From sequence record NZ_CP104305.1: DNA of 64,000 bases; one strand, written 5' to 3'. Positions 31,192 through 46,936 of the stretch are shown piece after piece. A program made the translations under genes and the position numbers. The notes below the pieces were generated by a model, which saw only the letters and a list, made by a program, of their open reading frames with translations, was not told the origin of the DNA and did not search any database. Origin of the DNA: a plasmid. Each line of letters starts with the position of its first letter. The stretch's first letter is position 1.

Positions 31192-31944
31192 CTAATTCTT
31201 GTCTTTCTTTTTGCTCTTCTCTAGGTTGGCTAACTCTTCACGAACCCTATGATGGCGGCGAATCACTTTACGAACTCGGTTATGTTTTTGTTGTGCAGAA
31301 TCAAATGGCCCCCGGTAATCTTTCTGTCGTTGTCGCTCAGTTCTTTGTCCTTGTTTGACTTGAACAGACGAGGCATATTGGCTTGTGAACTCAATCATAA
31401 ATTGATCTGGTACAACCCGGCCATCTTGTAATTGCCGCTGCTTTTGTTTGGTAACATAAAGCACCATCACATCATGTAGCTGGCCATCTTTGCCACGAAC
31501 ATGCGCAACTCGCCCTAATGGCCGATCCGGAATGACCAAATCATCAGGGACTAGCCAGTAGTATTTAGTCGGTCGAATGCGCTTTGGCGTCATGAAGTAA
31601 CCTGCCATCATAGTAACTTTTCCAAGTACCTTGACGTGACGATTACGATGCTGCGTAAAGGCTTTTAACTCCGTATCAGTCTCTGTTTTCTCCTGGATCA
31701 AGCGTTCTTTGACGGCGGCATAGCTGTGCTTTCTAGCTTCTTCCGCTCGTTGATTAGCAGTTTTTTGTGCCTCTGCCAGAATATCCTCTCGTTCATCAGG
31801 ATCACTCGTTTGAATCATGAGTAAATGCAGACCGGCACGTTCTGCCTCAGTTAGCTCTTTGAGGTTTTTGAGCGCTACCTCTTCCGGAAAGGCTTCACGT
31901 TTCCGTTGATTAAACTCTTTAGAATTCATCAGGGTCGCCTCCAT
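31192..31944 (-). CDS. replication-associated protein downstream of repA (RepB-like, charged/coiled-coil)
   Basis: start overlaps repA stop; typical partner position in RepA_N replicons. Confidence 0.4.
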   Translation of the reverse strand: MEATLMNSKEFNQRKREAFPEEVALKNLKELTEAERAGLHLLMIQTSDPDEREDILAEAQKTANQRAEEARKHSYAAVKERLIQEKTETDTELKAFTQHRNRHVKVLGKVTMMAGYFMTPKRIRPTKYYWLVPDDLVIPDRPLGRVAHVRGKDGQLHDVMVLYVTKQKQRQLQDGRVVPDQFMIEFTSQYASSVQVKQGQRTERQRQKDYRGPFDSAQQKHNRVRKVIRRHHRVREELANLEKSKKKDKN

Positions 31945-32968
31945 TAGCTGTCATGAGTGATTTGTTCCAGTATGCCACCAAGGTCTCTTTCATAGCACCA
32001 AACAAGTAATTTTCGACATTGTTAATTTTTTTACTGTCAGAACGTAAAACGTTAAAAAACCGGCGCATAGTCTTGTTGATCATTTCTTGGCACTGCGGAT
32101 CATCTAGAACAATCGTTGTTCCTTGATGTTCCCTTTCTACAGCCTTTTTGGCATTTAGGATAATACCCAGGAACCGATGCATCTGTTTTGGAGAATTGCA
32201 CCATAGCCCAAGAAGTTCTATCCCTTCTCTGTTGAGAAAGAGGCCACCTGTTGCTGTTTCAGGCAAATAATCTTTGGCGTTTTGGACAAGGTCTTGATTT
32301 TGTTTTCGCAGAAGTTCAGGCGAATATTGGTTCGTGGAAAAATCCAGTTTCTCTGTCTCTTTATTGTCTCTAGTATTTATCTCTAAGTCTTTATATAGAT
32401 TGTGTGTAGATTTTACACTTCCGTGTTTATCAAGGGATTTGGCGGTGTTTTGAATCTTTTTATCAGGAAGTGTAAATTTTACACTTCCGCGTGTAGCAAG
32501 GGATTGAACAGTATTTCGCGGTGGTGTAGATTTTACACTTCCGCGTGTATCAAGGGATTTACTTGTTTTTGGAAGTAAATATGCGTCTGTCGCATCAATT
32601 TGTAAATTTGCAAGATATAGCCTATTAGGTTCGTTTCTCCCAGTTTTTGGATTAAACCCTCTTTTTTGTTGATAAAGTAAATTAGCCTCTTCAAGCTCAT
32701 TTTTGGTATGAACAACTGTTTTGTTGCTAACGTTCAACAATTTTTGCAACTCTTTGTTTGTAAAAATAAAAAAGACGTTACCGTTCTCATCAACCCAATT
32801 GTTCTTTAGGGAAGCCTCTAAGCGATCTTTCAATACCATGTAGGCCGCTTTAGCTTGCAAACTCAAACTTGTGTATTGTTTTCCGTAGAACAAAACTTTT
32901 GGAAATTGAAAATATAGATTCCCGTAAACAGAATTCGCTTGATAAAAATTAAAATTGTCTGGCATCAT
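31919..32968 (-). CDS. repA: RepA_N-family plasmid replication initiator
   Basis: N-terminal YFQFPKVLFYGKQYTSLSLQAKAAYMVLKDRL...NNWVDENGNVFFIFTNKELQKLL matches RepA_N domain; repeat-bearing central region. Confidence 0.85.
   Translation of the reverse strand: MMPDNFNFYQANSVYGNLYFQFPKVLFYGKQYTSLSLQAKAAYMVLKDRLEASLKNNWVDENGNVFFIFTNKELQKLLNVSNKTVVHTKNELEEANLLYQQKRGFNPKTGRNEPNRLYLANLQIDATDAYLLPKTSKSLDTRGSVKSTPPRNTVQSLATRGSVKFTLPDKKIQNTAKSLDKHGSVKSTHNLYKDLEINTRDNKETEKLDFSTNQYSPELLRKQNQDLVQNAKDYLPETATGGLFLNREGIELLGLWCNSPKQMHRFLGIILNAKKAVEREHQGTTIVLDDPQCQEMINKTMRRFFNVLRSDSKKINNVENYLFGAMKETLVAYWNKSLMTANGGDPDEF
32410..32559. repeat. three direct repeats (29-bp core TTTTACACTTCCGYGTKTAKCAAGGGATT, period 55-66 bp) inside repA, candidate origin iterons
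   Basis: cores at 32410, 32476, 32531; encode degenerate (T/K)RGSVKST peptide repeats. Confidence 0.6.
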
Positions 32969-33206: not shown

Positions 33207-34004
33207 GTGATTTCAATGGCAAAGAAAATTTTGATGTATAGCATGAAAGGCGGGATTGGAAAAACAACGATCCAAAGCATGAACGCCTGGAATCTGGCAA
33301 AAGATGGTCACAACGTATTAGCAGTTGATCTTGATCCGCAAGCGAACTTAACTAATATTCTATTTAATACTTTTGGTCATAAAGAACCTCAAAGGGGGTT
33401 ATTCGATTCGTTTGTATCTGGAGATTTGACAACCGCACGGGTTCATTTGAGTGAAAATCTTGATTTGCTAGTATCTGACTGGTCAATGAGCTTATTTGTT
33501 AGTAAGTTCGAATCCATTGATACAAAAACGCGAAATTTGATTCTGCGAGAATTACTAAAACCTTTTGAAAATCAGTATGAATATATTCTGCTTGATGTTC
33601 CGCCAACAATTAGCACACTTACGAACAATGCCGTTTTGGCGAGTGACTTTGTTGCAATTGTCTTGCAAACGCAGCAAGCAAGTTTCGACGGAGCTTTAAA
33701 GACAGTAACTTACTTAAACCAATTACGTAATGATTATAGTGCTGACTTTTCAATGATTGGTGTTGTTGTCTATCTTTTGAAACGTAGTAGTGTTACAGAA
33801 AATGATATTGTGAAGACGGCTAAGGAAACGTTTGGAGATTTGCTTTTCACCAACCAGGTTTTAAATCGAGAAAGAGTTAAAAGATGGGCAATGAATGGAA
33901 TAACTGATAACGCAAAAGATGTCAATGACCGGAATGTTCATTCTATGTTCAGCTTTGTAACGGCAGAGACTCTACGACGTATTTCAGAAATGGAGAAGGA
34001 GTAA
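33207..34004 (+). CDS. parA: ParA/Soj-family partition ATPase
   Basis: deviant Walker A MKGGIGKTT; 265 aa. Confidence 0.85.
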   Translation: MISMAKKILMYSMKGGIGKTTIQSMNAWNLAKDGHNVLAVDLDPQANLTNILFNTFGHKEPQRGLFDSFVSGDLTTARVHLSENLDLLVSDWSMSLFVSKFESIDTKTRNLILRELLKPFENQYEYILLDVPPTISTLTNNAVLASDFVAIVLQTQQASFDGALKTVTYLNQLRNDYSADFSMIGVVVYLLKRSSVTENDIVKTAKETFGDLLFTNQVLNRERVKRWAMNGITDNAKDVNDRNVHSMFSFVTAETLRRISEMEKE

Positions 34005-34242: not shown

Positions 34243-34595
34243 TGTTTGTTGGCATTGCTCCATGTCCATGAATTAGATCATTTTGAATGTATTTGTCAGG
34301 ACAAATTAAGTATCTTGTATCTCGATATTCAATACTTAGGTTAGAATGTTTCTTTAAAGAAGCAAGATAATGCTCATACACGCCTTTATCATGTTTGAGA
34401 CAAGCAATCTCATAGCTTTTGCTCAATCTTGCTTTGAACCGCTGCATGTAGATGAAGAATGAGTAGCAGTCTTCAAAGTGGTTATCGACCACCACAAGCC
34501 AATAACGAGTGTGAGGCGCACGGGTGAAGTAATGATCGTACTGTGACAGCATCGATTTAATGCCAAGCCTTAGTTCGGTTTCCTTATCCATGATG
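34235..34595 (-). CDS. hypothetical protein downstream of umuC
   Basis: ORF; upstream in-frame extension overlaps umuC 3' end so start placed at MDKETEL. Confidence 0.3.
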
Positions 34596-35891
34596 CCCAC
34601 CAACCAATCCGGCGCGATCAATTGCGGTCGCGCCTTTTTCTTTGGAGTAGCCCCGCACAATTGCTTTGTAGCCATATAGTTGACGAATCTTGTCAATTGT
34701 TTGATCTAACAAAACGTTTGCTTCCTCCTTCTCTGCTGATTCAAATAGACTAAGCTGCATCGAGCTTGCTTGACTGATGCGATTAACACGAACTGAAACA
34801 TTTCTGACGGCATGGCCGTTCCACTTACTATGGAAGAGATAGCGAGTGGCGCGAATCAAATCGTCAGTGCGGTTTGTGGGATCAATCTTCATTTGCGCAC
34901 CGAAACCGGAGGTGCCTGCTTCTTCTGCATCAGCATAACCAATCCCAACGCTAACCACTTCACCTTGTACTTGATGGTGACGAAGTCGGCCAGCAACCTG
35001 ATCAGCAATCTCGCTAAGTACGACTTCAATCTCCCTTGCCTGCGTGTAATCACGCATGAGTACCTGACTATTGCCATAGCCTTTGTTCTCGGCTCGTGGC
35101 AAATAGCGACGAGTCAAATCCGAGTAATCAATACCCCACGAATGGAAATACAAGGCATCGCCGAGAACGCCGAAGCGTTGATGTAATAAAAGCCGATCGG
35201 TGTGTGCAAGATCATAGAGGCTGTGAATGCCTATTGCATTAAGCTTTTTTGCGGTACGGCTGCCGATTGACCAGAAATCGGCTAAGTCATGTAGTTGCCA
35301 TATGGTTTCGGGTATCCGGTCGTAAGTCCAAGTGGCTTGCCACGGAGCGGTCTTCTTGGCTTCGTTATCGAGAGCCAGCTTTGCCAGTAGAGGATTCTGA
35401 CCAATGCCAACGGTTGTGATGATGCCAAACTGATCAAACACCTTCTTCTGTATTTGGGTAGCAATTTCTTGATTGGTACCGAAGAGATTGTGTGAGTGGG
35501 TGACGTCAATAAAGGATTCATCAATGGAATAGGGGTACCAATGAGCATCGTCAGTAAACTGGCGATAAATACGATTAATCCCGTAATTCTTGCGAATGTA
35601 ATCCGCCATCCGTGGTTCGGCCAGTTCAATCTTCATGTCGTCCCGCAATTGAAAGCGGCGCGTGCTCAAGCCAACATGGTAACGTTTCTTGCAGTTGGGA
35701 CTCGCAGCTAACACCAGGCCGCCAGGAGAATCGCCTTTGCTAAGCACGGCAATATCAGCTGCCAACGGGTGAATGCCGCGTCGAATGGCCTCAACGGAGG
35801 CGTAAAAGGACTTGCAGTCAATACACATGATGTCGTGTACCGGTAGTCTCGTTGGATCATCTAGTGGCGTGGTCATGCTAACGCCCACCAC
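34584..35891 (-). CDS. umuC: Y-family DNA polymerase (UmuC/ImpB/UvrX-like)
   Basis: N-terminal CIDCKSFYASVEA catalytic motif, ~430 aa. Confidence 0.85.
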   Translation of the reverse strand: MVGVSMTTPLDDPTRLPVHDIMCIDCKSFYASVEAIRRGIHPLAADIAVLSKGDSPGGLVLAASPNCKKRYHVGLSTRRFQLRDDMKIELAEPRMADYIRKNYGINRIYRQFTDDAHWYPYSIDESFIDVTHSHNLFGTNQEIATQIQKKVFDQFGIITTVGIGQNPLLAKLALDNEAKKTAPWQATWTYDRIPETIWQLHDLADFWSIGSRTAKKLNAIGIHSLYDLAHTDRLLLHQRFGVLGDALYFHSWGIDYSDLTRRYLPRAENKGYGNSQVLMRDYTQAREIEVVLSEIADQVAGRLRHHQVQGEVVSVGIGYADAEEAGTSGFGAQMKIDPTNRTDDLIRATRYLFHSKWNGHAVRNVSVRVNRISQASSMQLSLFESAEKEEANVLLDQTIDKIRQLYGYKAIVRGYSKEKGATAIDRAGLVGGHHG

Positions 35892-36256
35892 CGATCAGGA
35901 TTGAGCAAAGCTACGTTACGAATATCAGCTGCATTGACTGATTGGGTGTCGCCGTTCTTGAGTTGTAAATAAACCTGATCGTCCCAATGACCAATAACGG
36001 CGCCCTCAATATCTGGTAGCAACCGATCATCGTAGGGTGTGCCAATTTGAACGGCTACAATTTTTGCATTTTGCCAGGCATCTTCAAGGATGTCGCTAAT
36101 GGTTTCTTGAGACTGTTCTGGCTTTGGTTCGACAGGACGTTCAGAAATGGAGGCTTTCTCCATATAGGCAGAATGATCACTGAGAATCCAACCGAGCCAT
36201 TTCTTCATGCAACGGTCAGGATAAAGCCACTTTTCTCGTGGCACGTTATTTTCCAT
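35873..36256 (-). CDS. YolD-like accessory protein (UmuD' analogue) overlapping umuC start
   Basis: ~127 aa ORF whose 3' end overlaps the umuC-like start, as in Bacillus yolD-uvrX / yqjX-yqjW pairs. Confidence 0.4.
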   Translation of the reverse strand: MENNVPREKWLYPDRCMKKWLGWILSDHSAYMEKASISERPVEPKPEQSQETISDILEDAWQNAKIVAVQIGTPYDDRLLPDIEGAVIGHWDDQVYLQLKNGDTQSVNAADIRNVALLNPDRWWALA

Positions 36257-36293
36257 AATATTAGCCTTCCTTGTTAGTTTTATAGCCATTATA

Positions 36294-36329
36294 CAAACGC
36301 ACGTTCTTAATAGCAAACATACGTTTGCA
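36294..36329. promoter_or_regulatory. two imperfect Cheo-like (GAAC-N4-GTTC) boxes upstream of yolD-umuC
   Basis: AAACGCACGTTC and CAAACATACGTTTG. Confidence 0.25.
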
Positions 36330-36785: not shown

Positions 36786-37143
36786 GCATAGATTACAATT
36801 ATGAAGGTACTACATAAAAGGTGGCTTGCTCACTGCGTGCCTCAATTGAGACTCCTACGGAATCGTTATAGCGTGACCGTAGGTCTGCTATAATGGTACG
36901 GTAATTACCTTCGGGGCAACGGTGAAGTTCATATCTAATAGAAATATGGGAGCGGTCTGAGGTCGCGGTGATGTGTTGAATCGTGTGGTGTGGCATAAGC
37001 TCTGTCTGAGCTCAACTAACGTTATAATAGCCATGAGGTCTTTCCTTCTTTCTAGATGGCATGTTGTTTAAACACCATTTTAGCAAGAGGGAGTTGGCCG
37101 TTCTTCACATTCCGTGGATGGTAACTTTAATTATGCAATCTAG
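36786..37143 (-). mobile_element. internally deleted IS30-family derivative retaining both terminal inverted repeats
   Basis: ends ~75% identical to both ends of IS30 copies at 57201/61057; residual ORF MPHHTIQHITATSDRSHISIRYELHRCPEGNY equals N-terminus of IS30 transposase with internal deletions. Confidence 0.6.
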
Positions 37144-37209
37144 AATTAATCTTTAACCCTAAATAATTTGAATTGAATAACAATTGATATCCAAAATGAG
37201 GTAAAAATC

Positions 37210-39213
37210 ATGGATAATACAAATATATTTGAAAAAGTTGATACATCAATTAAAGAAAATCCTAATTATAAAAAAATGATAGCGTCTTTAAAATGCTATC
37301 TGTCAGGCAAAAGTATCTCGTCATTTATCATTGATAGACCACTTTCTGGTGCACAAAAAGATTATCAGTACGAGTATAAGACGGGATTTATGATTCTTGT
37401 TCCGGGACTTAAACTTCTCTTTTCAACAATCGAAGAAATTGATACAGAAGAATTTAAGAATTTCAGGCTTGACTTTTTAGACGATATAAATTCATTGTCT
37501 GACAAATATAAACATAAAGAAATATTGGGAAGAACCAGATCCTGGCAAGCACTAACCGATAAGATTGATATATCGAAGCTAACTAGCAAAGCAGATCCTT
37601 GGCAAAAGTATTCCCTAAATAATACTAACAAACGAAAAGCAGAGCTATTAATCACACTACTCACTGGCTCAGTTAATGACCCGCATAATATAAAAGTTGA
37701 AGCACCCAGAGACCTTCTAGACGCTATTAAACATCGTATAACGTTGTTTGATGCTGATCAAACACGTTTCATATACAATGATTTGAGTAAAAAGGTCTTA
37801 TCAATACAAGGGCTCGCAGGAACAGGTAAAACAGAACTATTGCTACATAAGCTATATGATATTTACGCACATCAAGACACGGCGAACACTCGAGTTGTTT
37901 TTACATGCTTTAATAAGATTTTGGCTAATGAAATGAAGAATAGAATACCTGCATTTTTTGACTTTATGAAAGTTGATGAGCAGATTCAATGGGGTAAGCG
38001 TTTGTGGGTTATGCGAAGTTGGGGATCTTTGGCAAATCCTGAAGAAGGAATATATAGTCATATTTGCTATAAATATAATCTTCCATTTAAACGCTATTCG
38101 AATGGAATTAAATTCGATGAATTGTGTACAGAAGCAATATCGATGTTAGAAAAAATTCCAAATCTAGAGCCATGCTTTGATTACACACTGATTGACGAGG
38201 GGCAAGACTTTGATGATTCATTTTTTAGGCTATGCTCGTTAGTTACTAGTAAGCAAGTAATTATTGCAAGTGATATCTTTCAAAATATCTTCGACAAGAG
38301 ATCCTCGCAAACAAGCAATCCGGATTTTACACTTAACAAAGTATATCGAACCGATCCCAAGACTTTTATGTTTGCACAACTCTTTGGATTCGGTGTTGAA
38401 GAACCAGTAGGAGTAAACTGGCTAGAGGATAACACTTGGCGAACGTGCGGTTATTCTTTTGATGTAAAGGGTACAGAGTATACCTTTACAAGAGAGCCGT
38501 TGACACGTTTTGAAGATATTGGAAACTGTAATGAAACGCCGTTGATTCTTAGAGGGGCAGACGACAAAAAGTCTACAATAGAACATGTTGTATCAATTAT
38601 TCAAGAAATTATTGATCAAAATCCAAGAGTTGAACCAGATGATATTGGAATAGTGTTTCTATCCGGAAGTAAACAAGACTATGAACAAATAAACAGGTTA
38701 GCGATTGAAATTAACAAAAAATACGATTGGTTATGTCAAAAAGGATATGAAACAAAATCAAGAGAGTCAAACAGACTTTTTATAAGCAATAGGAATAATG
38801 TAAAAGGGTTGGAATTTCCATTTGTTATTTGCGTTATTAATGAAAAAATAGAACAGGACTATATAGCTAGAGATTCAATTTATATGGCATTAACACGCTC
38901 TTTCATAACGTCATATCTTGTCTACTCACCAGATAATCAACAGCTAATGAGTCAATATGATAATCTTTATAACCAGATTATAAAAACAGGAAAGGCCACC
39001 GTTTCAAAGCCAAAAATAACTATAAGTGAAACCGATATATCAAATCAAACAAATAAAACACAACAACAGGTAGCAGATTCTGTTTTTAAGGATCTTCATA
39101 TAACAGATAGCGCTAAAAAGGGACGACTGAGTAAGGTAATATCAGTACTAGCAGGCAAAAGCACTGATTACGCTGCGATTAGGTCAATAGTCGAAAAAAA
39201 TAAAGATTTTTAA
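37210..39213 (+). CDS. nuclease-helicase-like protein: PD-(D/E)xK/NERD-like N-domain plus SF1 (UvrD-like) ATPase
   Basis: very low GC; IIDRPL...YEYKTG (D...ExK); Walker A GLAGTGKTE; Walker B LIDEGQDF; C-terminal VKGLEFPFVICV (helicase motif VI-like). Confidence 0.5.
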   Translation: MDNTNIFEKVDTSIKENPNYKKMIASLKCYLSGKSISSFIIDRPLSGAQKDYQYEYKTGFMILVPGLKLLFSTIEEIDTEEFKNFRLDFLDDINSLSDKYKHKEILGRTRSWQALTDKIDISKLTSKADPWQKYSLNNTNKRKAELLITLLTGSVNDPHNIKVEAPRDLLDAIKHRITLFDADQTRFIYNDLSKKVLSIQGLAGTGKTELLLHKLYDIYAHQDTANTRVVFTCFNKILANEMKNRIPAFFDFMKVDEQIQWGKRLWVMRSWGSLANPEEGIYSHICYKYNLPFKRYSNGIKFDELCTEAISMLEKIPNLEPCFDYTLIDEGQDFDDSFFRLCSLVTSKQVIIASDIFQNIFDKRSSQTSNPDFTLNKVYRTDPKTFMFAQLFGFGVEEPVGVNWLEDNTWRTCGYSFDVKGTEYTFTREPLTRFEDIGNCNETPLILRGADDKKSTIEHVVSIIQEIIDQNPRVEPDDIGIVFLSGSKQDYEQINRLAIEINKKYDWLCQKGYETKSRESNRLFISNRNNVKGLEFPFVICVINEKIEQDYIARDSIYMALTRSFITSYLVYSPDNQQLMSQYDNLYNQIIKTGKATVSKPKITISETDISNQTNKTQQQVADSVFKDLHITDSAKKGRLSKVISVLAGKSTDYAAIRSIVEKNKDF

Positions 39214-39226
39214 AAAAGGAAACAAA

Positions 39227-39895
39227 ATGAAAGAAAAGAAATTATTAGAATTCATAATGCCTTTACAGGTGGAGAATCACTTAATAATTCGATGTAAACG
39301 TGATGTCATTATTCTGTTGTTAGAAACGATTCAAAGTATTTCTCAATCAGATTTACTTAGAACTAGGAAGAACTCCTGCAAGAATAGCCGCACAAGTGGA
39401 ATCATGTACATAATTAGCTCCCGAATGAAAAGATTCTTTTATTGTCGCAAAGATGGTGGAATAACATCTATTGCATTTCCTTTTAGTTTCACGGAGGATC
39501 AATATAGAATTCAATTTGTGGATTCTTTAACAAGACAAGAGATGACCCCACAACTTACCTCAAGTTTAATTTCACTATTAAACGATTGTGTTTTTGATTT
39601 TGATCATTACAATCCAGATGATATAGAGAGTCAAGATTTAAGTGAAATAGATATTAGCAATCCCTCGTCGAAAGTTTGGGCAATCATGCAGGAGCTTATT
39701 TTATATGATGCCGGTTATTTAAGATATGACATTGATTCTGAGCAAGAGGATAAAGATAGGCACCCATTAAATCACTTGGACATTAACTTTGATAATGCTT
39801 CCACTTTCAAGCTCGGATTACACAGTGAAATCTATATTGAAGAATTACAAAATATAGTCGATAATTCCACCAATACTCGATATTTTGAGCAATGA
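39227..39895 (+). CDS. hypothetical 222-aa partner protein
   Basis: 14 bp after previous stop, same low GC; no recognisable motif. Confidence 0.35.
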   Translation: MKEKKLLEFIMPLQVENHLIIRCKRDVIILLLETIQSISQSDLLRTRKNSCKNSRTSGIMYIISSRMKRFFYCRKDGGITSIAFPFSFTEDQYRIQFVDSLTRQEMTPQLTSSLISLLNDCVFDFDHYNPDDIESQDLSEIDISNPSSKVWAIMQELILYDAGYLRYDIDSEQEDKDRHPLNHLDINFDNASTFKLGLHSEIYIEELQNIVDNSTNTRYFEQ

Positions 39896-40186
39896 TTGCA
39901 ACACTTGGAGTGTACCCTATTGTTGCTACGTATAAAGTTAAGAAACGGTAGTACTCTCTAGTTTGTAGCGATTTCCTGATTAATTTGGCATCAAACATCA
40001 TCAGGTTTAATCCCATGAGTAAAGATGATTTTGGATTATCAAAAAACAGCCAACTCTGATAAGGTGGCTGTTTTTATTCATGTGACGTATTCACTAACTT
40101 AACAGTACTTGAACACACATTCAGATTGAGCAATAATGGGGTTAATCAGTATTCAAAAACTTATACGCAGAAAGTAAGGACATTGA

Positions 40187-40864
40187 ATGACACATTTTGG
40201 TGAAAAACAATCAAATGATATTCAGGAACCGATTCGATATGGCTATGCACGCGTTTCGACGCTCGGACAATCGCTTGATGATCAAATAGCACAACTAAAG
40301 ACAGCTGGAGTTAGATCCGAGAATCTATTCGCAGAAAAATATACAGGAACAACCGTCCAACGTCCAAAGTTTGATAAGCTCATTGAACTAGCGGATCAAG
40401 GAGACGTTATCATCGTAACCAAACTAGATCGCTTAGCTCGTAATACTAAAGAGGCCTTAACTGTTTTAGATGATTTACAGGATCGTGGCATCAGTGTCGA
40501 TGTTTTAAATTTAGGGCGCTTTGCAACCAATGAACAGGGTGAACTAACGGCGATTGCAAGATTAATGCGAACCATGCTACTGGCCTTCGCTGAAATGGAG
40601 CGCGATATGATTGTTGAACGCACACAAGCTGGTAAGGCATATGCTAAGAAACACAATCCGAATTTTAAAGAAGGGAGACCGCTGGCACGCATGACACCAC
40701 AAAAAAGACATGCTTATGCGCTATTAAGAGGAACTTCGGGTGAGCGACGTCACACTTATACCGAAGTAGCTAAGTTGACCGGCTATAGTAAATCCACTAT
40801 TCAACGAATTGCTAAGCGTATTGAATCGGAGGAAATGTTTAAACAATGCAGCGAACAAGAATAA
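40187..40864 (+). CDS. serine recombinase (resolvase/invertase family)
   Basis: YGYARVSTLGQSLDDQ catalytic motif; C-terminal HTH. Confidence 0.8.
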   Translation: MTHFGEKQSNDIQEPIRYGYARVSTLGQSLDDQIAQLKTAGVRSENLFAEKYTGTTVQRPKFDKLIELADQGDVIIVTKLDRLARNTKEALTVLDDLQDRGISVDVLNLGRFATNEQGELTAIARLMRTMLLAFAEMERDMIVERTQAGKAYAKKHNPNFKEGRPLARMTPQKRHAYALLRGTSGERRHTYTEVAKLTGYSKSTIQRIAKRIESEEMFKQCSEQE

Positions 40865-41052: not shown

Positions 41053-44000
41053 TTATCTTAAAGAGGAGAAAAACGCAAGTAAGCCATCTTCGAAGTCTGC
41101 GGTTTCAAAGAATCCTAAGTTCTGATCCTTTTCAATTTGTGTGATTTTATTTTTCAACTTAGGGTTATCATTTAAGCCAACTCCTGGCAAATATAGATCA
41201 TAGGCTTCGACAATCGCATTACCATTAGATCCGTGGTCAGCTGACCAACGACGTAACTTTAGTTCTTTGCGTTCAGTTCGGATGGTCTTACGTGCATGTT
41301 GCAGCGAATCCGTGTTGAAATGTGTTTTATAGTCGCCATTCTCGATTCCATCGAGAATGTCCTCAATTTCATGTCGACTCTCGTCATCCATTGGGGTAAT
41401 GTGTTCTACAACATTATCCCGGTTTTCCCGCGTCTTTTCGTCCATATAGGCATTAATTAATGCTACTAACATGTCATAATCAATGATTTCATGACTATAC
41501 ATATCAATGGCAATTTTGATGTTCGTCAGGTCAATCTTCTTTTCTGGCGGTAAAAGCTCATTGACATCGTTCAGACGGGCTTGCAGGGCACTGAATTCAT
41601 CATTGTCCTTAATGTTTAACTTGGCCTTATCGCCAGTTACCTTGCCGTCCGCGTCTAGCACATCAACTTCTGAACCAAGTGCATAACCTTGCTGAACTAA
41701 TCGTTGAACTTGTTGATTGACCTCCGATGCTAAAACCGCGAACTCCAATTGTAGCTTTTCAGAACGAGGCGTTTGACTGAAGTCTTCACCGGCAATTTCC
41801 TTAAGATGCTCAATCTTTGGTTGCAATTCATCAATTTGTGTCGACATTCTTGGTGCCAGAATATCGTCGTTAAAAAGGTTCTGTTGATCATCCTTCACCG
41901 ACTTCTTTTTCGCGTCGGCAAGCGTATCATTACCACCTTTAGTATAAATGATCAAAGCTTCCTTGACATTTTCCTCCATAACGTCGCCTTTGCGGAAAAA
42001 GCGCACCTTGCCATACGGCTTAGCATTTTTGTCAATCGTTCGATTGGTACGCGACATTGCTTGAATCAGCATGCCCTCCTTAAGCAGTTTGTCGATATAG
42101 ATGATATTCAGGTACTTAGAATCGAATCCCGTGAGCAGCTGATCTGACACAATGACCAAGTCAAGTCGCTGAGGATGAGCAGTTTCCTCAGCAACGGTCA
42201 ATTTTTGATTGTAAGGCTTTTTGTGGGCTAAACGTTTCGTGATATCAGTTAGGTAAGTCCGTTCTGGATCCTTGTCGTCTAAGAAATTACGGGTCTGATA
42301 GCGCGTTGCATAATCTGTCATCGCCTGCTTCAAGGCAGCTTGCAAATCAGACGTCCCTTCTCCGTTATCCTCATCACGTGAATAAGTCATGGCTACGCGA
42401 AGGTCGGGAGCCAATTCTTTGAACAGGTTATAGTATGCAACGACAGCCTGCTTTCCGGAGACAGCAAACAAGCCATGAAATTGATTTGGCTGACGAACAC
42501 CCCCCTGAATTGGCCCAGAATGGTTCTCTTGCCAATGAGCAAGGATGTCCTCGACCACAGCCTTCCGGAATGGATACGAGGTATACACCTGCTTTTCTAA
42601 TTCCGGCTCAGTCAGGTCAGCATTCGCTGATGCCTCAATTTCCGGCGTGTAATACGTCACATCAAAACCAAGAACGTTACCATCGCCGATAGCATCTTTA
42701 ATGGTATAGCGGTGGAGCCGCTTACCGAAGATATCATAGGTTGAGATATTCCTTGATGTCTTCACTTCATTAACTTCATCGCTATAAAAATTAGGTGTAC
42801 CAGTAAAACCAAACCATGTTGTCTTTGGAAACGCCTTTTTAATCCTAGCGACAGCATCACCACTAGCTGACCGATGAGCTTCATCCATTAAAATGACATT
42901 GCGATCATTGCATAATAACCCTGACTTAACGGCCTTATCTAAGCCCTGCACCGTAATCAAGTAGATAAATGATGGGTCACTTTTCTGCTTGAGTACTTGT
43001 TTCAGATTATGTCCATTTACAATTTGAATTCGGTCTTCAAAGGTTTTGTAGGCATAGGACTTAAAATCGTCATACGTTTGTTTTACTAAATCAACGCGAT
43101 CCACAATGAACAGAACGTTACGAACTTTTGGCATCGATGCGAGTAGTTGTGCAACCTTGAATGAAGTGACGGTCTTGCCTGATCCCGTTGTGTGCCAGAT
43201 ATAGCCGCCTTCTTTTTCAATATAGTTGTTTGCTTCCATCGTTCGCATGCGATCCATAATTGCCCGTGTTGCCTGAATTTGATACGACCGCATGACCATC
43301 AGATTATCATTAGCTGCATCCGGAATCATGTTAACCGTCACTAAACGGTGTAAAGCCGGAATCCCCATCACTTGATGAATGAACGCCATGGTGGCTGTTA
43401 CATCCTTACCATTGTCATCACGCCAACCAAACACGAAATCCTTATTGTATGATTGAGCGTTTTTTGGACGGGCAAAATAATGAGCAGAGTGCTGAGATAG
43501 TACAAATTGAACCTGAACAAATGAAAACAGACCGGTATACATGCCGTCATCGTCATACTTTTGGAGTTGTTCAAACGCATTCCATTGGTTCTGCAGCGAT
43601 TCATCCTTCTCTTCGATATGGACAACGGGCAATCCGTTAATCAAGAGCATGATATCAATACGTCGTTTTTCACTCAATGTAAATGGCAGCTCACTAAATG
43701 TAACTTGGTTGACAATCTCGTAACGAGAATGACCACCGGCCACCTCATCACCATAGAAAATTTCTATCTCCAATTTTGTTCCATCGTCACGGGTCAAAGG
43801 CACTGTTCCAATGCCACCTGACCCCGCCAACATCAGCTGTGCATCGTAGGGTGTCTTATTCTTGTTAAGTTCAAGTTTGATACTCTCGAACTCGTTGTCA
43901 GAAAGTGGTGTGCCGTCGAGCTTGCGTGCGTTGTTCTGGTTCAGAATATCACGCCAATGGTGATACAGAGCCTTAGTGGTTACACCAGATAAATCATCGC

Positions 44001-44064
44001 GGTATGTCCAACCTTCCGATTTAAGTTTCTCAATTACCGCTTTTTCAAACTTGTCTTCCGCCAT
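41053..44064 (-). CDS. hsdR: type I restriction enzyme R subunit
   Basis: 1003 aa; TGSGKT Walker A, DEAH box (LMDEAHRS). Confidence 0.9.
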   Translation of the reverse strand: MAEDKFEKAVIEKLKSEGWTYRDDLSGVTTKALYHHWRDILNQNNARKLDGTPLSDNEFESIKLELNKNKTPYDAQLMLAGSGGIGTVPLTRDDGTKLEIEIFYGDEVAGGHSRYEIVNQVTFSELPFTLSEKRRIDIMLLINGLPVVHIEEKDESLQNQWNAFEQLQKYDDDGMYTGLFSFVQVQFVLSQHSAHYFARPKNAQSYNKDFVFGWRDDNGKDVTATMAFIHQVMGIPALHRLVTVNMIPDAANDNLMVMRSYQIQATRAIMDRMRTMEANNYIEKEGGYIWHTTGSGKTVTSFKVAQLLASMPKVRNVLFIVDRVDLVKQTYDDFKSYAYKTFEDRIQIVNGHNLKQVLKQKSDPSFIYLITVQGLDKAVKSGLLCNDRNVILMDEAHRSASGDAVARIKKAFPKTTWFGFTGTPNFYSDEVNEVKTSRNISTYDIFGKRLHRYTIKDAIGDGNVLGFDVTYYTPEIEASANADLTEPELEKQVYTSYPFRKAVVEDILAHWQENHSGPIQGGVRQPNQFHGLFAVSGKQAVVAYYNLFKELAPDLRVAMTYSRDEDNGEGTSDLQAALKQAMTDYATRYQTRNFLDDKDPERTYLTDITKRLAHKKPYNQKLTVAEETAHPQRLDLVIVSDQLLTGFDSKYLNIIYIDKLLKEGMLIQAMSRTNRTIDKNAKPYGKVRFFRKGDVMEENVKEALIIYTKGGNDTLADAKKKSVKDDQQNLFNDDILAPRMSTQIDELQPKIEHLKEIAGEDFSQTPRSEKLQLEFAVLASEVNQQVQRLVQQGYALGSEVDVLDADGKVTGDKAKLNIKDNDEFSALQARLNDVNELLPPEKKIDLTNIKIAIDMYSHEIIDYDMLVALINAYMDEKTRENRDNVVEHITPMDDESRHEIEDILDGIENGDYKTHFNTDSLQHARKTIRTERKELKLRRWSADHGSNGNAIVEAYDLYLPGVGLNDNPKLKNKITQIEKDQNLGFFETADFEDGLLAFFSSLR

Positions 44065-44121: not shown

Positions 44122-45354
44122 CTATACAAACATCTTTTGGAGCAGTGCCTTCTTCAAGTTTTTGAGAACCTCACCTTTACGTTTAGTTGCAGCGATAAGG
44201 TTTTCCAAGGTAATAATGAACTGAGCAACTGCAACTTGTTCGTGCACGGTTGGAATAGAAACCACTAAATCTCTTACCAACTCTGAATTAATATTGATTT
44301 GAGATCCTGGTTGTCCAAATCTAGCCCAATTAGGTCGATATTTCTCTAGGAAATAAAACATAAAGTCCAAATCAAATTTTGGATCCATAAATACAATAAA
44401 ACCGTCGTGTACACCGACCTGAATGTAGTTCTGGACTGGTTTCCCGACAGTTGCGGCAATGCTCAATAACAGGTGCTTGGATTTTAAAACCAAAGTCTTT
44501 TTCTGACCAGCATCGGATAAGTATTGCTCAACTTGGTGTATTCTGCCGTTTTGTTCTGTAACATCTGATATTCTTATCCATCCTACCTGAGATGTTTGAC
44601 TAAACCACTTTTTGTTTTTTATCGGTCTGGGGCTTGCACCTCGTCGAATATTTGCAAGCTCTCCCAACTTACGCTTTTCCCAAGCGTCAGTGAACCCCTT
44701 GAACCGAATATCGGGGATCGGACTTGTTTCAGATGCGAATAATCGTTGCAACAGGCCCTTCTTCAAGTTTTGAAGAACATCACCTTTACGCTGGTTGACT
44801 GCGATGAGGGAATCGAGGCGGGAGAAGAAGGCGCCGATCTTGGTTTGCTCGATAACCTCCTCAGGGATACCAAGCTCATACTTTGCAAGGTCAGATGGCG
44901 TAATACGCTTCTGACTATTTGAAGTTCCTGAGGACATCGCCTCCATATCCCGCGTCACCTTATCAGACAACATAATTTGCTCAAGAAGTCCTAGAGCAAC
45001 CTTATCAGAGGTAAAGGGTACGAATTCACTCGATGTAACTGCATTATCTTCAACTTCTCGAAGCCACCAAATTCTGCGCTGTCGAACGTTTAACTTGTTA
45101 ATGAGCAGAACATTCCCTGATATTTTTAGGCGAAGACTCTGCATCATCTTTCCCAAAACGACTTGCGGAGTTCTTCCATTATCGAACGCTGGCATACTGT
45201 ATTCAGCAAATTTTTCAGCGGGTGTATCTTGCGGATTAATACTGTCTCGAACAAAGTTGCCAAGTTCCCCCAGCTTCCGCTTTTCCCAAGCGTCCGTGAA
45301 TCCCTTAAACCGAATAGCCGGTTGAGTTCTTTGGTGGTCCCGAACATTACTCAT
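44122..45354 (-). CDS. hsdS: type I R-M specificity subunit with two target-recognition domains
   Basis: conserved IRFKGFTDAWEKRKLGEL repeated at start of each half. Confidence 0.8.
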   Translation of the reverse strand: MSNVRDHQRTQPAIRFKGFTDAWEKRKLGELGNFVRDSINPQDTPAEKFAEYSMPAFDNGRTPQVVLGKMMQSLRLKISGNVLLINKLNVRQRRIWWLREVEDNAVTSSEFVPFTSDKVALGLLEQIMLSDKVTRDMEAMSSGTSNSQKRITPSDLAKYELGIPEEVIEQTKIGAFFSRLDSLIAVNQRKGDVLQNLKKGLLQRLFASETSPIPDIRFKGFTDAWEKRKLGELANIRRGASPRPIKNKKWFSQTSQVGWIRISDVTEQNGRIHQVEQYLSDAGQKKTLVLKSKHLLLSIAATVGKPVQNYIQVGVHDGFIVFMDPKFDLDFMFYFLEKYRPNWARFGQPGSQININSELVRDLVVSIPTVHEQVAVAQFIITLENLIAATKRKGEVLKNLKKALLQKMFV

Positions 45355-46936
45355 GATCCAGAACCTCCCTTAACTCATCCAATATCTGCTGATCCTCTTG
45401 ATGAGTCACCACTAAATCGCTCATCATTTCTTTCAGGTCAGTTGTAAGTCGATTTTCTTCTTTAGACAGAGCCTTCATACTACTTAATAGCTCCGCAGAA
45501 TCGACTGGCTCCTCTTCTTCAAAGGTATCAACATAGCGTGGAATATTGAGGTTATAATCATTTTCTCGGATTTCGTCCATTGTCGCGACATGTGCGTACT
45601 TATCAATATCGTGATGTGCTAGATAGGCTTCAACAATTTTGTTAATGTCTTCTTCTCTTAATTTATTGCTGTTTTTCTGCCTCTCGTACCCCTTTGAGGC
45701 GTCAATAAACAGCACATCATCAGTTGCGCGGTTCTTCTCAAGAACCATGATGATGGTTGGAATACCTGTATTCGTGAAGATCTTTTCGGGCAGGCCAATA
45801 ATGGCCACAATGTGGCGATTTTCCAAAAGCTCCTTGCGAATACGTTCCTCGGCAGCCCCACGGAACAGAACGCCATGTGGCAAAACAATTGCCATCCGAC
45901 CGTCTGATTTTAAATGGTACAAACTGTGCAATAGGAATGCATAGTCAGCTTTAGACTTTGGGGCAACTCCAAATCTGAAGCGTGGATCATCTTCTCGATT
46001 CGTATTATCCCACTTTTGTGAATAGGGTGGATTTGCCATGACTGCATCAAACATACGAGGGTTATCAATACCTTCAACAACACCATCAGGCCAATCACCA
46101 TTCAACGTATCAGCATTACGAAGGTTGATGTCATTATACTCAACGCCATGCATCATCAGGTTCATACGCGCAAGATTGTAAGTCGTCGTAATCAGTTCTT
46201 GTCCATAATACTTAATGGCTCCACGAACGCCAGCATTTTTCATATGAGATGCTGTTGTCAGAAGCAATGAACCAGATCCCATTGTCGGATCGTACAGATT
46301 ATATTCTTCAAGGTTTTCACGCCCAGCAGTTAAAATACGAGCCATAACGTCTGATACTTGGTGTGGTGTATAGAACTCTCCGGCCTTAGCACCAGAATTA
46401 GCGGCAAACATACTAATCAAGTATTCGTATAGATCACCTAAGATGTCAGCCTCTTCACCTAGCTCCATCTTATCCATGAGGTTAATCCAAGCCATTAATG
46501 TTGCCGTACGGGTCTGTGCATTGGCACCTAGCCGTGATGAGGTGAGATCCATATCGGTAAAGATTCCGGCAAAGTTGTCTTTGGCATCTGGGCTCACACC
46601 TTGATCGAAATGAACTAAAGCATCAGAAACCATCATAATATTGAACTTGTCTTCATTAATTGCGGTCTTCCAATCCGAGAACATGTCGCCTGGTTGAATC
46701 ACATAGCCAAGGGTTCGTTGCATAAAGCCCGCCGATTTCTCAGGATTTTGTTTCCAAACATCGGCCCATGTTTCGCCACGTAACACCTGATTAAGCCAGT
46801 GTTGGGCCTTTTCAGATAAGAACTTGTAGAACATGACTCCAAAGATGTAGTTTTTGTATTCTGACGGTTCAATCTTTCCCCGAGTCTCGTTTAATGTCTT
46901 CCAGATTAAAGCCTCTTTGTCGGCTGTCAATGCCAT
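45347..46936 (-). CDS. hsdM: type I R-M N6-adenine DNA methyltransferase subunit
   Basis: NPPYS motif IV; overlaps hsdS start. Confidence 0.9.
   Translation of the reverse strand: MALTADKEALIWKTLNETRGKIEPSEYKNYIFGVMFYKFLSEKAQHWLNQVLRGETWADVWKQNPEKSAGFMQRTLGYVIQPGDMFSDWKTAINEDKFNIMMVSDALVHFDQGVSPDAKDNFAGIFTDMDLTSSRLGANAQTRTATLMAWINLMDKMELGEEADILGDLYEYLISMFAANSGAKAGEFYTPHQVSDVMARILTAGRENLEEYNLYDPTMGSGSLLLTTASHMKNAGVRGAIKYYGQELITTTYNLARMNLMMHGVEYNDINLRNADTLNGDWPDGVVEGIDNPRMFDAVMANPPYSQKWDNTNREDDPRFRFGVAPKSKADYAFLLHSLYHLKSDGRMAIVLPHGVLFRGAAEERIRKELLENRHIVAIIGLPEKIFTNTGIPTIIMVLEKNRATDDVLFIDASKGYERQKNSNKLREEDINKIVEAYLAHHDIDKYAHVATMDEIRENDYNLNIPRYVDTFEEEEPVDSAELLSSMKALSKEENRLTTDLKEMMSDLVVTHQEDQQILDELREVLDHE

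Follow-up and report, generated by a model that had tools for sequence, protein, structure and literature searches.

What are the two AT-rich genes that lie beside a type I restriction-modification (R-M) system on the plasmid of sequence record NZ_CP104305.1? We analysed a 64,000-nucleotide stretch of this plasmid, referred to here as the window, in which two co-oriented open reading frames (ORFs) occupy 37210-39213 (667 aa) and 39227-39895 (222 aa), both on the plus strand. An earlier note on this DNA had taken them for a nuclease-helicase gene and a small partner gene that together form an undescribed antiphage system. We arrive at a different reading, to which we give a probability of about 0.6: the two genes are a horizontally acquired operon of a helicase and an effectively obligate partner, a sister clade of the helicase + DUF2290 system, in which the helicase would license the partner to act as the effector.

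The two genes belong to a recognized family pair

The 667-aa protein matched the NCBIfam model NF053713 ("STM2767 family DEAD/DEAH box helicase") with 744.8 bits, residues 15-666 aligning to positions 11-663 of 665, and the 222-aa protein matched NF053714 ("STM2766 family helicase-associated protein") with 147.5 bits, residues 20-220 aligning to positions 18-206 of 207. Both scores exceed the curated cutoffs (550 and 70 bits, respectively), and the partner gene lies directly downstream of the helicase gene, placing the two in the NCBIfam STM2767/STM2766 pair. Because both models match, the window pair is one that is already recognized as a family pair, without a function. The families take their names from genes of Salmonella Typhimurium LT2 that lie beside fljAB, and these names carry no function. 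The arrangement of the Salmonella pair (locus L084, beside fljA/fljB) is the same as that in the window, and the window proteins share ~40% (helicase) and ~30% (partner) identity with enterobacterial members.

Other resources said less about the two proteins. Pfam found only generic superfamily 1 (SF1) domains in the helicase, namely UvrD-helicase (45.8 bits, cutoff 23), AAA_19 and UvrD_C_2, and PHROGs list both proteins as families with no assigned function. The partner had no match in Pfam or in PADLOC (PADLOC-DB v2.0.0, 2023, in all searches). The best PADLOC match of the helicase was to the "Helicase" model PDLC03002 (E 6.8e-24), residues 170-363 aligning to positions 181-373 of 707. These 193 positions do not cover most of the helicase, and we take PDLC03002 to be the helicase model of the DUF2290 system from its name and its numbering beside the DUF2290 models. 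The known abortive infection (Abi) and other PADLOC systems were rejected as assignments, given that the helicase matches were partial (PDLC03002, C3a187 and weak matches to GajB and RTasHel) and the partner had none. In the literature that we searched, STM2767 served only to mark fljAB-region deletions in monophasic Salmonella, and reviews of the lactococcal defensome and of Abi systems leave out the STM2767/STM2766 clade. A 2026 helicase-nuclease preprint was set aside as a source, since it deals with type III Druantia.

The helicase and its partner form an effectively obligate module

In a scan of one genome per species, the helicase was found in at least 245 of ~185,000 species, among Bacillota, Alpha-, Beta-, Gamma- and Epsilonproteobacteria, Bacteroidota, Cyanobacteria and Spirochaetes; the pair occurs in at least six phyla, on chromosomes, plasmids and prophages. 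At 81 of 83 loci (~80 species), the partner lies immediately 3' of the helicase on the same strand, and in the other two the contig ends within ~550 nt of the helicase stop codon. The commonest junction is a 4-nt overlap (18 loci). On viral contigs, all 13 partner loci have the helicase upstream.

The two proteins also diverge together. Over 77 loci, the pairwise identities of helicase and partner were correlated with a Mantel r of 0.82, a value reached by none of 999 permutations, with the partner diverging faster (mean identity 32% vs 48% for the helicase). An exhaustive profile search gave 799 partner clusters at 50% identity, and the best 150 of the 799 are all stand-alone proteins of 150-244 aa. 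We conclude that the two genes do form a module and are effectively obligate to each other, as the earlier note had suspected from the single copy.

Two larger assemblies were considered and rejected. Clustering of 818 neighbouring ORFs yielded no third component, since no gene was kept beyond 7 of ~80 loci. Dependence on an adjacent hsdRSM system is likewise excluded because the neighbours are not conserved; HsdM adjoins the pair in only six loci. Decayed copies were seen as well: the helicase is split into two ORFs on a prophage contig (L086 3911-5933), the partner is split on another such contig (L094 5669-6489), and a DUF2290 gene is split on an Acinetobacter pittii plasmid (L111 2950-3619).

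The pair is a diverged sister of the helicase + DUF2290 system

Helicase + DUF2290 (DefenseFinder "Rst_HelicaseDUF2290"; Rousset et al. 2022) was described from a P4-like satellite of K. pneumoniae, whose version inhibits T7 (PMC9122126); its mechanism is unexplored (PMC10952713). When plasmids were searched with the window helicase by tblastn, all nine of the weaker matches that we inspected (L. cremoris, E. coli, two Acinetobacter, Exiguobacterium, Agrobacterium, B. cereus, Nostoc and Corynebacterium) had an annotated "DUF2290 domain-containing protein" directly next to the helicase, in the same order. Gene order, strand and sizes in the window are those of these nine bona fide loci: a helicase with an N-terminal domain of ~180-190 aa, followed on the same strand by an abutting or overlapping gene for a partner of ~220 aa. 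Both clades reside on plasmids and prophages and adjoin toxin-antitoxin and R-M genes, often with a helix-turn-helix (HTH) regulator upstream.

Profile-profile alignment (hhalign) joined the window helicase to the DUF2290-system helicases with a probability of 100% (E 1.2e-42) over 555 columns and residues 24-602, the N-terminal domain included, at ~19% identity. The partner profile aligned to DUF2290 with a probability of 88% (E 3e-6) over 49 columns, which comprise the conserved motif only: Y-x-R-x-D-x-D ... H-P-x-x-H ... K in STM2766 and P-I-R-F-D-x-D ... H-P-x-S-H ... R in DUF2290, where the aligned residues are R136, D138, H151, H155 and R165. Furthermore, a profile built from 67 partners retrieved a protein, P0155, that bridges the two clades. 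P0155 is a member of STM2766 (127 bits, cutoff 70), carries Pfam DUF2290 (26.4 bits, gathering threshold 25) and aligns along almost its entire length with the PADLOC DUF2290 model PDLC02998. The DUF2290-system helicases, for their part, have the STM2767 model as their best NCBIfam match, at 106-132 bits and far under the cutoff.

The two clades also differ. The window helicase is ~50 aa shorter than the DUF2290-system helicases (667 vs 709-719 aa; about 700-725 aa in the nine inspected loci), the N-terminal two-thirds of the window partner has no detectable similarity to DUF2290, and D185, invariant in the STM2766 clade, is a threonine in DUF2290. Because both tests against existing profiles fail, for helicase and partner alike, while profile-profile alignment succeeds, we regard the pair as homologous to helicase + DUF2290 without model-level membership. 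These sequence comparisons place the window pair in a clade that is sister to helicase + DUF2290 and has diverged deeply from it.

The earlier note had stated that the pair did not match any system it could name. This does not hold, as NCBIfam already defines STM2767/STM2766 and the profiles tie the pair to helicase + DUF2290. A defence system of an entirely new category, with no tie to those already described, would fit a partner that matches nothing in PADLOC v2 or Pfam and whose predicted fold has no relative in the PDB or BFVD, next to a helicase with partial matches only. This possibility is largely excluded, and we hold it to be very improbable, because the helicase and partner profile alignments and the P0155 bridge tie the pair to the DUF2290 system; the homology extends over the full length of the helicase, the partners have a motif in common, gene order and sizes agree, and NCBIfam holds the two as a pair. 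STM2767/STM2766 is best described as a variant within the helicase + DUF2290 superfamily, on a branch that escapes the PADLOC v2 and Pfam models and that NCBI lists without a function.

The helicase core is intact and its N-terminal domain appears degenerate

The SF1 motifs of the helicase are invariant in 82 of 82 relatives: Q184, which lies 17 residues before Walker A, GxGxGKT at 201-208 (G201, G204, G206, K207 and T208), DExQD at 329-333, D355/Q358, YRT at 379-381, KGLEF at 532-536 and TRS at 562-564. The Q motif and motifs I, II, III, IV, V and VI of a UvrD-like SF1 helicase are thus all intact. As the earlier note had read, this is an SF1 ATPase with GLAGTGKT as Walker A and a recognizable Walker B. 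It had also called KGLEF motif VI; from the motifs of UvrD and PcrA, we take KGLEF to be motif V and TRS to be motif VI. Because all SF1 motifs are invariant among the 82 relatives, the helicase is expected to have ATPase and translocase activity. A sequence search of the PDB gave a sole, weak match, to UvrD (E 0.007).

The N-terminal domain had been read as a PD-(D/E)xK/NERD-type nuclease from a D...ExK arrangement (IIDRP...YEYK). The residues of that arrangement are variable across the 82 relatives: position 42, D in the window, is N in 26, D in 24, K in 10 and S in 6; position 55, E in the window, is D in 20, S in 16 and E in 14; and position 57, K in the window, is E in 28 and K in 18. Residues that are conserved lie elsewhere, with D92, R108, W112, L150, G153 and N156 invariant and Y54, P65, K68, D88 and K99 nearly so. 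Structure prediction of residues 1-197 (mean predicted local distance difference test score, pLDDT, 83) gave an alpha-beta-beta-beta-alpha core with a weak restriction-endonuclease-like fold signal. The beta2-beta3 hairpin of this model contains P65-x-x-K68 and has no conserved acidic residue where PD...(D/E)xK would be expected. Neither NERD nor any other Pfam family was found in the N-terminal domain of the STM2767 or the DUF2290-system helicases, and the aligned domain of the latter keeps none of the STM2767 N-domain residues. Because a conserved acid is missing from the PD...(D/E)xK site and the DUF2290-clade domain lacks these residues, we read the model as probably a degenerate endonuclease-like fold that serves DNA binding or docking of the partner. 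Less probably, the domain may have a variant active site.

These results bear on the idea that nuclease and helicase share one polypeptide, as in Nhi, Hna or the lactococcal AbiO, so that a PD-(D/E)xK-type N-terminal domain of the helicase cuts DNA and the small protein is only a regulator or sensor. The predicted core and the conserved acidic and basic residues D88, D92, K99 and R108 would suit such a nuclease, and the PADLOC "NERD+UvrD" model C3a187 matches the protein, although that match is confined to the helicase part (profile positions 197-553). The variable D42/E55/K57, the hairpin lacking a conserved acid, the missing Pfam match in either clade and the loss of the domain's residues in the DUF2290 clade all count against it, and the strict conservation of the partner motif argues for more than regulation. 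The Nhi, Hna and AbiO models gave no PADLOC match to the window proteins; unlike those systems, the window helicase is without canonical nuclease residues and its second gene is effectively obligate. We therefore judge a self-contained nuclease-helicase quite unlikely.

The partner carries an invariant C-terminal signature

The earlier note had found no recognizable motif in the 222-aa protein. In addition to the NF053714 match, an alignment of 67 diverse partners revealed an invariant C-terminal signature, Y164-x-R166-x-D168-x-D170 ... H179-P180-x-x-H183-x-D185 ... K195-x-G197. The predicted structure of the partner (pLDDT 83.8, predicted template modelling score 0.83) combines a five-stranded meander and helices with, at the C-terminus, a three-stranded sheet whose strands, E164-169, E182-188 and E191-198, hold the signature. 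Because the invariant residues alternate along these strands, R166, D168, D170, H183, D185 and K195 should line one face of the sheet in the model, with H179 in a connecting loop.

With two histidines, an acid and two basic residues, the cluster could serve phosphoryl transfer in the manner of metal-independent ribonucleases. Because the predicted fold has no relative among solved or viral predicted structures, a catalytic role for the partner is proposed from residue composition alone; our hypothesis is that the signature forms a candidate active or ligand-binding site.

The genomic context resembles defence islands or mobile elements

The neighbours of the pair vary by locus. Recurrent ones are serine recombinases (7 loci), HsdM/S/R, C5-methyltransferases, HNH proteins and an XRE-type regulator upstream. 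Near the pair, Lactococcus pUL021B has a type III-like R-M system, Pantoea has AbiJ and MazF, and Enterococcus faecium has ApeA-HEPN, zeta toxin, ScoMcrA-HNH and ParE. The 128 immediate neighbours matched 156 PADLOC families (E <= 1e-8; counted per family, not per protein), each in at most three loci, among them R-M types I-IV, PbeA, DrmMII, mad2 and DinG. This pattern fits a defence island or a mobile element. The defence-island-like setting described from the window, with R-M genes beside the pair, mobile flanks and foreign GC content, is thus borne out by the varied defence and toxin-antitoxin genes around the pair in other genomes.

A serine recombinase gene lies beside the pair in the window (40187-40864), in Lactococcus pUL021B (L001 4129-4716), in C. 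perfringens p9 (L003 5960-6535) and in four further loci. The two genes may move as one resolvase-linked cassette. Around the window copy, flanking res-like or inverted repeats were looked for without success.

At several loci of both the STM2767 and the helicase + DUF2290 clades, a small XRE/HTH-type regulator gene immediately precedes the helicase (L011 587-886 and four other loci, at position -1; L104 2307-2594; L105 1753-1977; L107 1950-2093; L108 2044-2274); the window copy is without one. The presence of such a gene in both clades hints at shared transcriptional control.

Five clostridial/Lachnospiraceae loci have a three-gene block of unannotated proteins (~285, 322 and 356 aa) directly upstream of the pair. 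Examples from this group (L033/L034/L012/L026) are L034 1481-2449, L033 6715-7572 and L012 8197-9267. The block may be another candidate defence module.

Weighing an antiphage role

From homology and context, we infer an antiphage role for the STM2767/STM2766 clade. Several points weigh against our reading of the pair. Our literature search turned up no experiment with members of the clade. The window partner and STM2766 have no match to Pfam DUF2290 (PF10053) or to the PADLOC DUF2290 models, even at E <= 1-10, and the partner-partner match is short (49 columns, 88%), with a DUF2290 profile built from 8 sequences. The predicted fold of the partner has no relative among PDB or viral predicted (BFVD) structures. 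In the sister system, a lactococcal DUF2290/helicase gave no protection from the lactococcal phages tested (PMC11381338), and in P. aeruginosa MPAO1 the only effects of deleting DUF2290/helicase were phage-specific ones (bioRxiv 10.64898/2026.09.16.752016).

The lactococcal result would also fit a module for the upkeep or competition of mobile elements, acting in the replication, recombination, repair or stability of plasmids or prophages, or in the exclusion of rival plasmids. The pair does reside on very small plasmids, including C. perfringens p9 (11.8 kb), where it lies directly behind rep, and on Acinetobacter plasmids of 26-30 kb, and Y-family/UmuC polymerase genes adjoin it in the window and in Pantoea. 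However, it is as common in chromosomes and prophages, replication genes are not fixed neighbours, and most of the neighbours are R-M, Abi, toxin-antitoxin and other defence genes. In addition, the sister helicase + DUF2290 system has an anti-T7 phenotype (PMC9122126), and the sparse, patchy spread of the pair over species genomes is typical of accessory immunity genes. Such a housekeeping or competition role sits poorly with the chromosomal defence-island settings, and we consider it unlikely.

Returning to the helicase-licensed effector, we propose the following scheme. Helicase and partner would form a complex, in which ATP would drive the helicase along phage DNA or replication intermediates, or let it sense them. 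On the model of Gabija (GajA/GajB) and Hachiman (HamA/HamB), this activity would license an effector that halts phage replication. The likeliest effector site would be the R-D-H-H-K cluster on the small beta-sheet face of the partner, a putative nuclease or phosphodiesterase site that may be metal-independent, and the N-terminal domain of the helicase would more probably bind DNA or dock the partner.

Gabija (GajA, an OLD-family nuclease, and GajB, a UvrD-like helicase) and Hachiman (HamA, a nuclease, and HamB, a helicase) are, like the window pair, two-gene arrangements of a helicase sensor and a small effector (PMC12278908, PMC10952713), and the GajB models match the core of the window helicase weakly. 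Both differ from the pair in that the effector gene comes first, the reverse of the window order. Their effectors have other folds, TOPRIM/OLD in GajA and a Cap4-like PD-(D/E)xK fold in HamA, and the window partner has no sequence or structural similarity to either; HamB, moreover, is a superfamily 2 helicase.

A bolder proposal, which we advance tentatively and think rather less probable than the reading given at the outset, is that STM2766/DUF2290 is an unrecognized effector fold in which Arg-Asp-His-His-Lys forms a new nuclease or phosphodiesterase site, possibly metal-independent, switched on by an SF1 helicase with a degenerate docking N-terminal domain. If this is true, helicase-licensed immunity would be a widespread mechanism that current defence-finding tools miss, with the window clade as its second main branch.

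The link to helicase + DUF2290 gives a functional hypothesis for a pair that is annotated as "DEAD/DEAH box helicase" and "hypothetical protein" and is widespread, with 799 partner clusters in addition to the species genomes above, on plasmids, in prophages and in the fljAB island of Salmonella. Finders based on PADLOC v2 or on Pfam DUF2290 undercount the superfamily. Residues R166, D168, H179, H183 and K195 (window numbering), common to both clades, make a short list of candidate catalytic residues. Another helicase-plus-partner candidate will not surprise a specialist; the apparently novel fold of the partner and these cross-clade residues make it a reasonable experimental target. A plasmid that carries the pair beside a type I R-M system could add to the phage robustness of dairy lactic acid bacteria.

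Layout of the locus

The features of the locus are given in Table 1. The spacer between the two genes is 13 nt, and the partner gene has its own ribosome-binding site, AGGA, upstream of 39227; the earlier note had given a gap of 14 bp and assumed translational linkage. No convincing sigma-70 promoter was found at the locus (a promoter scan gave 18 vs 15.2 expected). The hairpin downstream of the partner gene folds with -15.2 kcal/mol (z = -4.57; equalled by none of 200 shuffles) and, with its T-run, probably ends the transcript of the pair. A simple terminator scan did not pick it up, and it was later found by folding.

Table 1. Coordinates of the pair, its sequence elements and surrounding genes in the window.
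Feature	Position	Strand	Basis
STM2767-family SF1 (UvrD-like) helicase gene, 667 aa	37210..39213	+	NCBIfam NF053713, Pfam, SF1 motifs
Helicase ribosome-binding site GAGG, 8 nt ahead of ATG	37198..37201	+	Read from sequence
Helicase N-terminal domain, aa 1-190, predicted alpha-beta-beta-beta-alpha core	37210..37779	+	
Walker A / motif I, GLAGTGKT, aa 201-208	37810..37833	+	Invariant 82/82
Walker B / motif II, IDEGQD, aa 328-333	38191..38208	+	D329, E330, Q332, D333 invariant 82/82
STM2766-family helicase-associated partner gene, 222 aa; remote DUF2290 relative	39227..39895	+	
Partner C-terminal signature, aa 164-197	39716..39817	+	Invariant in 67 diverse sequences
Hairpin and T-run, probable intrinsic terminator behind the pair	40042..40080	+	Inverted repeat I10, RNA folding
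IS30-family fragment, transposase gene 5' end and upstream insertion sequence (IS) end; upstream boundary of cassette	36887..37143	-	Megablast
Serine recombinase (resolvase/invertase); downstream boundary of cassette	40187..40864	+	Pfam Resolvase, E 3.4e-36
HsdR, type I R-M	41053..44064	-	Pfam
HsdS, type I R-M	44122..45354	-	Pfam
HsdM, type I R-M	45347..46936	-	Pfam
RepA_N initiator	31919..32968		Pfam
ParA	33207..34004		Pfam
Y-family (UmuC/ImpB-type) polymerase	34584..35891	-	Pfam

The two-gene operon is horizontally acquired. The GC content of 37210-39895 is 0.336, and nowhere in the 64 kb is it lower (0.3rd percentile; equally long stretches of the window average 0.436, with a standard deviation of 0.032). 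The low-GC island of the earlier note therefore stands, whereas the ~47% GC that it gave for both flanks is true upstream only (0.475 at 34584-36316): the downstream genes have 0.42-0.43. The repA/parA region, at 0.37, is likewise low.

The mobile flanks and the neighbouring R-M system were read correctly from the start. The label of IS30 relic is reasonable because the upstream fragment matches the 5' end of an IS30-family transposase gene with 82% identity, in L. paracasei plasmids annotated there as IS30 family transposase. In a search for near-identical DNA, this fragment was the only part to match among 72,556 plasmids, and E. coli genomes gave no match. The shortened 65-aa ORF at 36799-36996 (minus strand) had no Pfam match. 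On the other side, Pfam identifies a serine recombinase, possibly the mobilising gene of the cassette, and next to it HsdR, HsdS and HsdM of a complete type I system. The partner had no match in the phage records searched, and its protein sequence is identical to one recorded from a Lacticaseibacillus paracasei plasmid.

A 69-aa antisense ORF (39807-40016, minus strand), probably spurious, spans the 3' end of the partner gene and intergenic sequence. The 5' end of the Y-family polymerase gene overlaps a 147-aa ORF (35873-36316, minus strand) without a Pfam match, and the two look like a plasmid-borne mutagenesis pair. On the Pantoea plasmid, umuC lies directly behind the helicase pair (L085 6223-7485).

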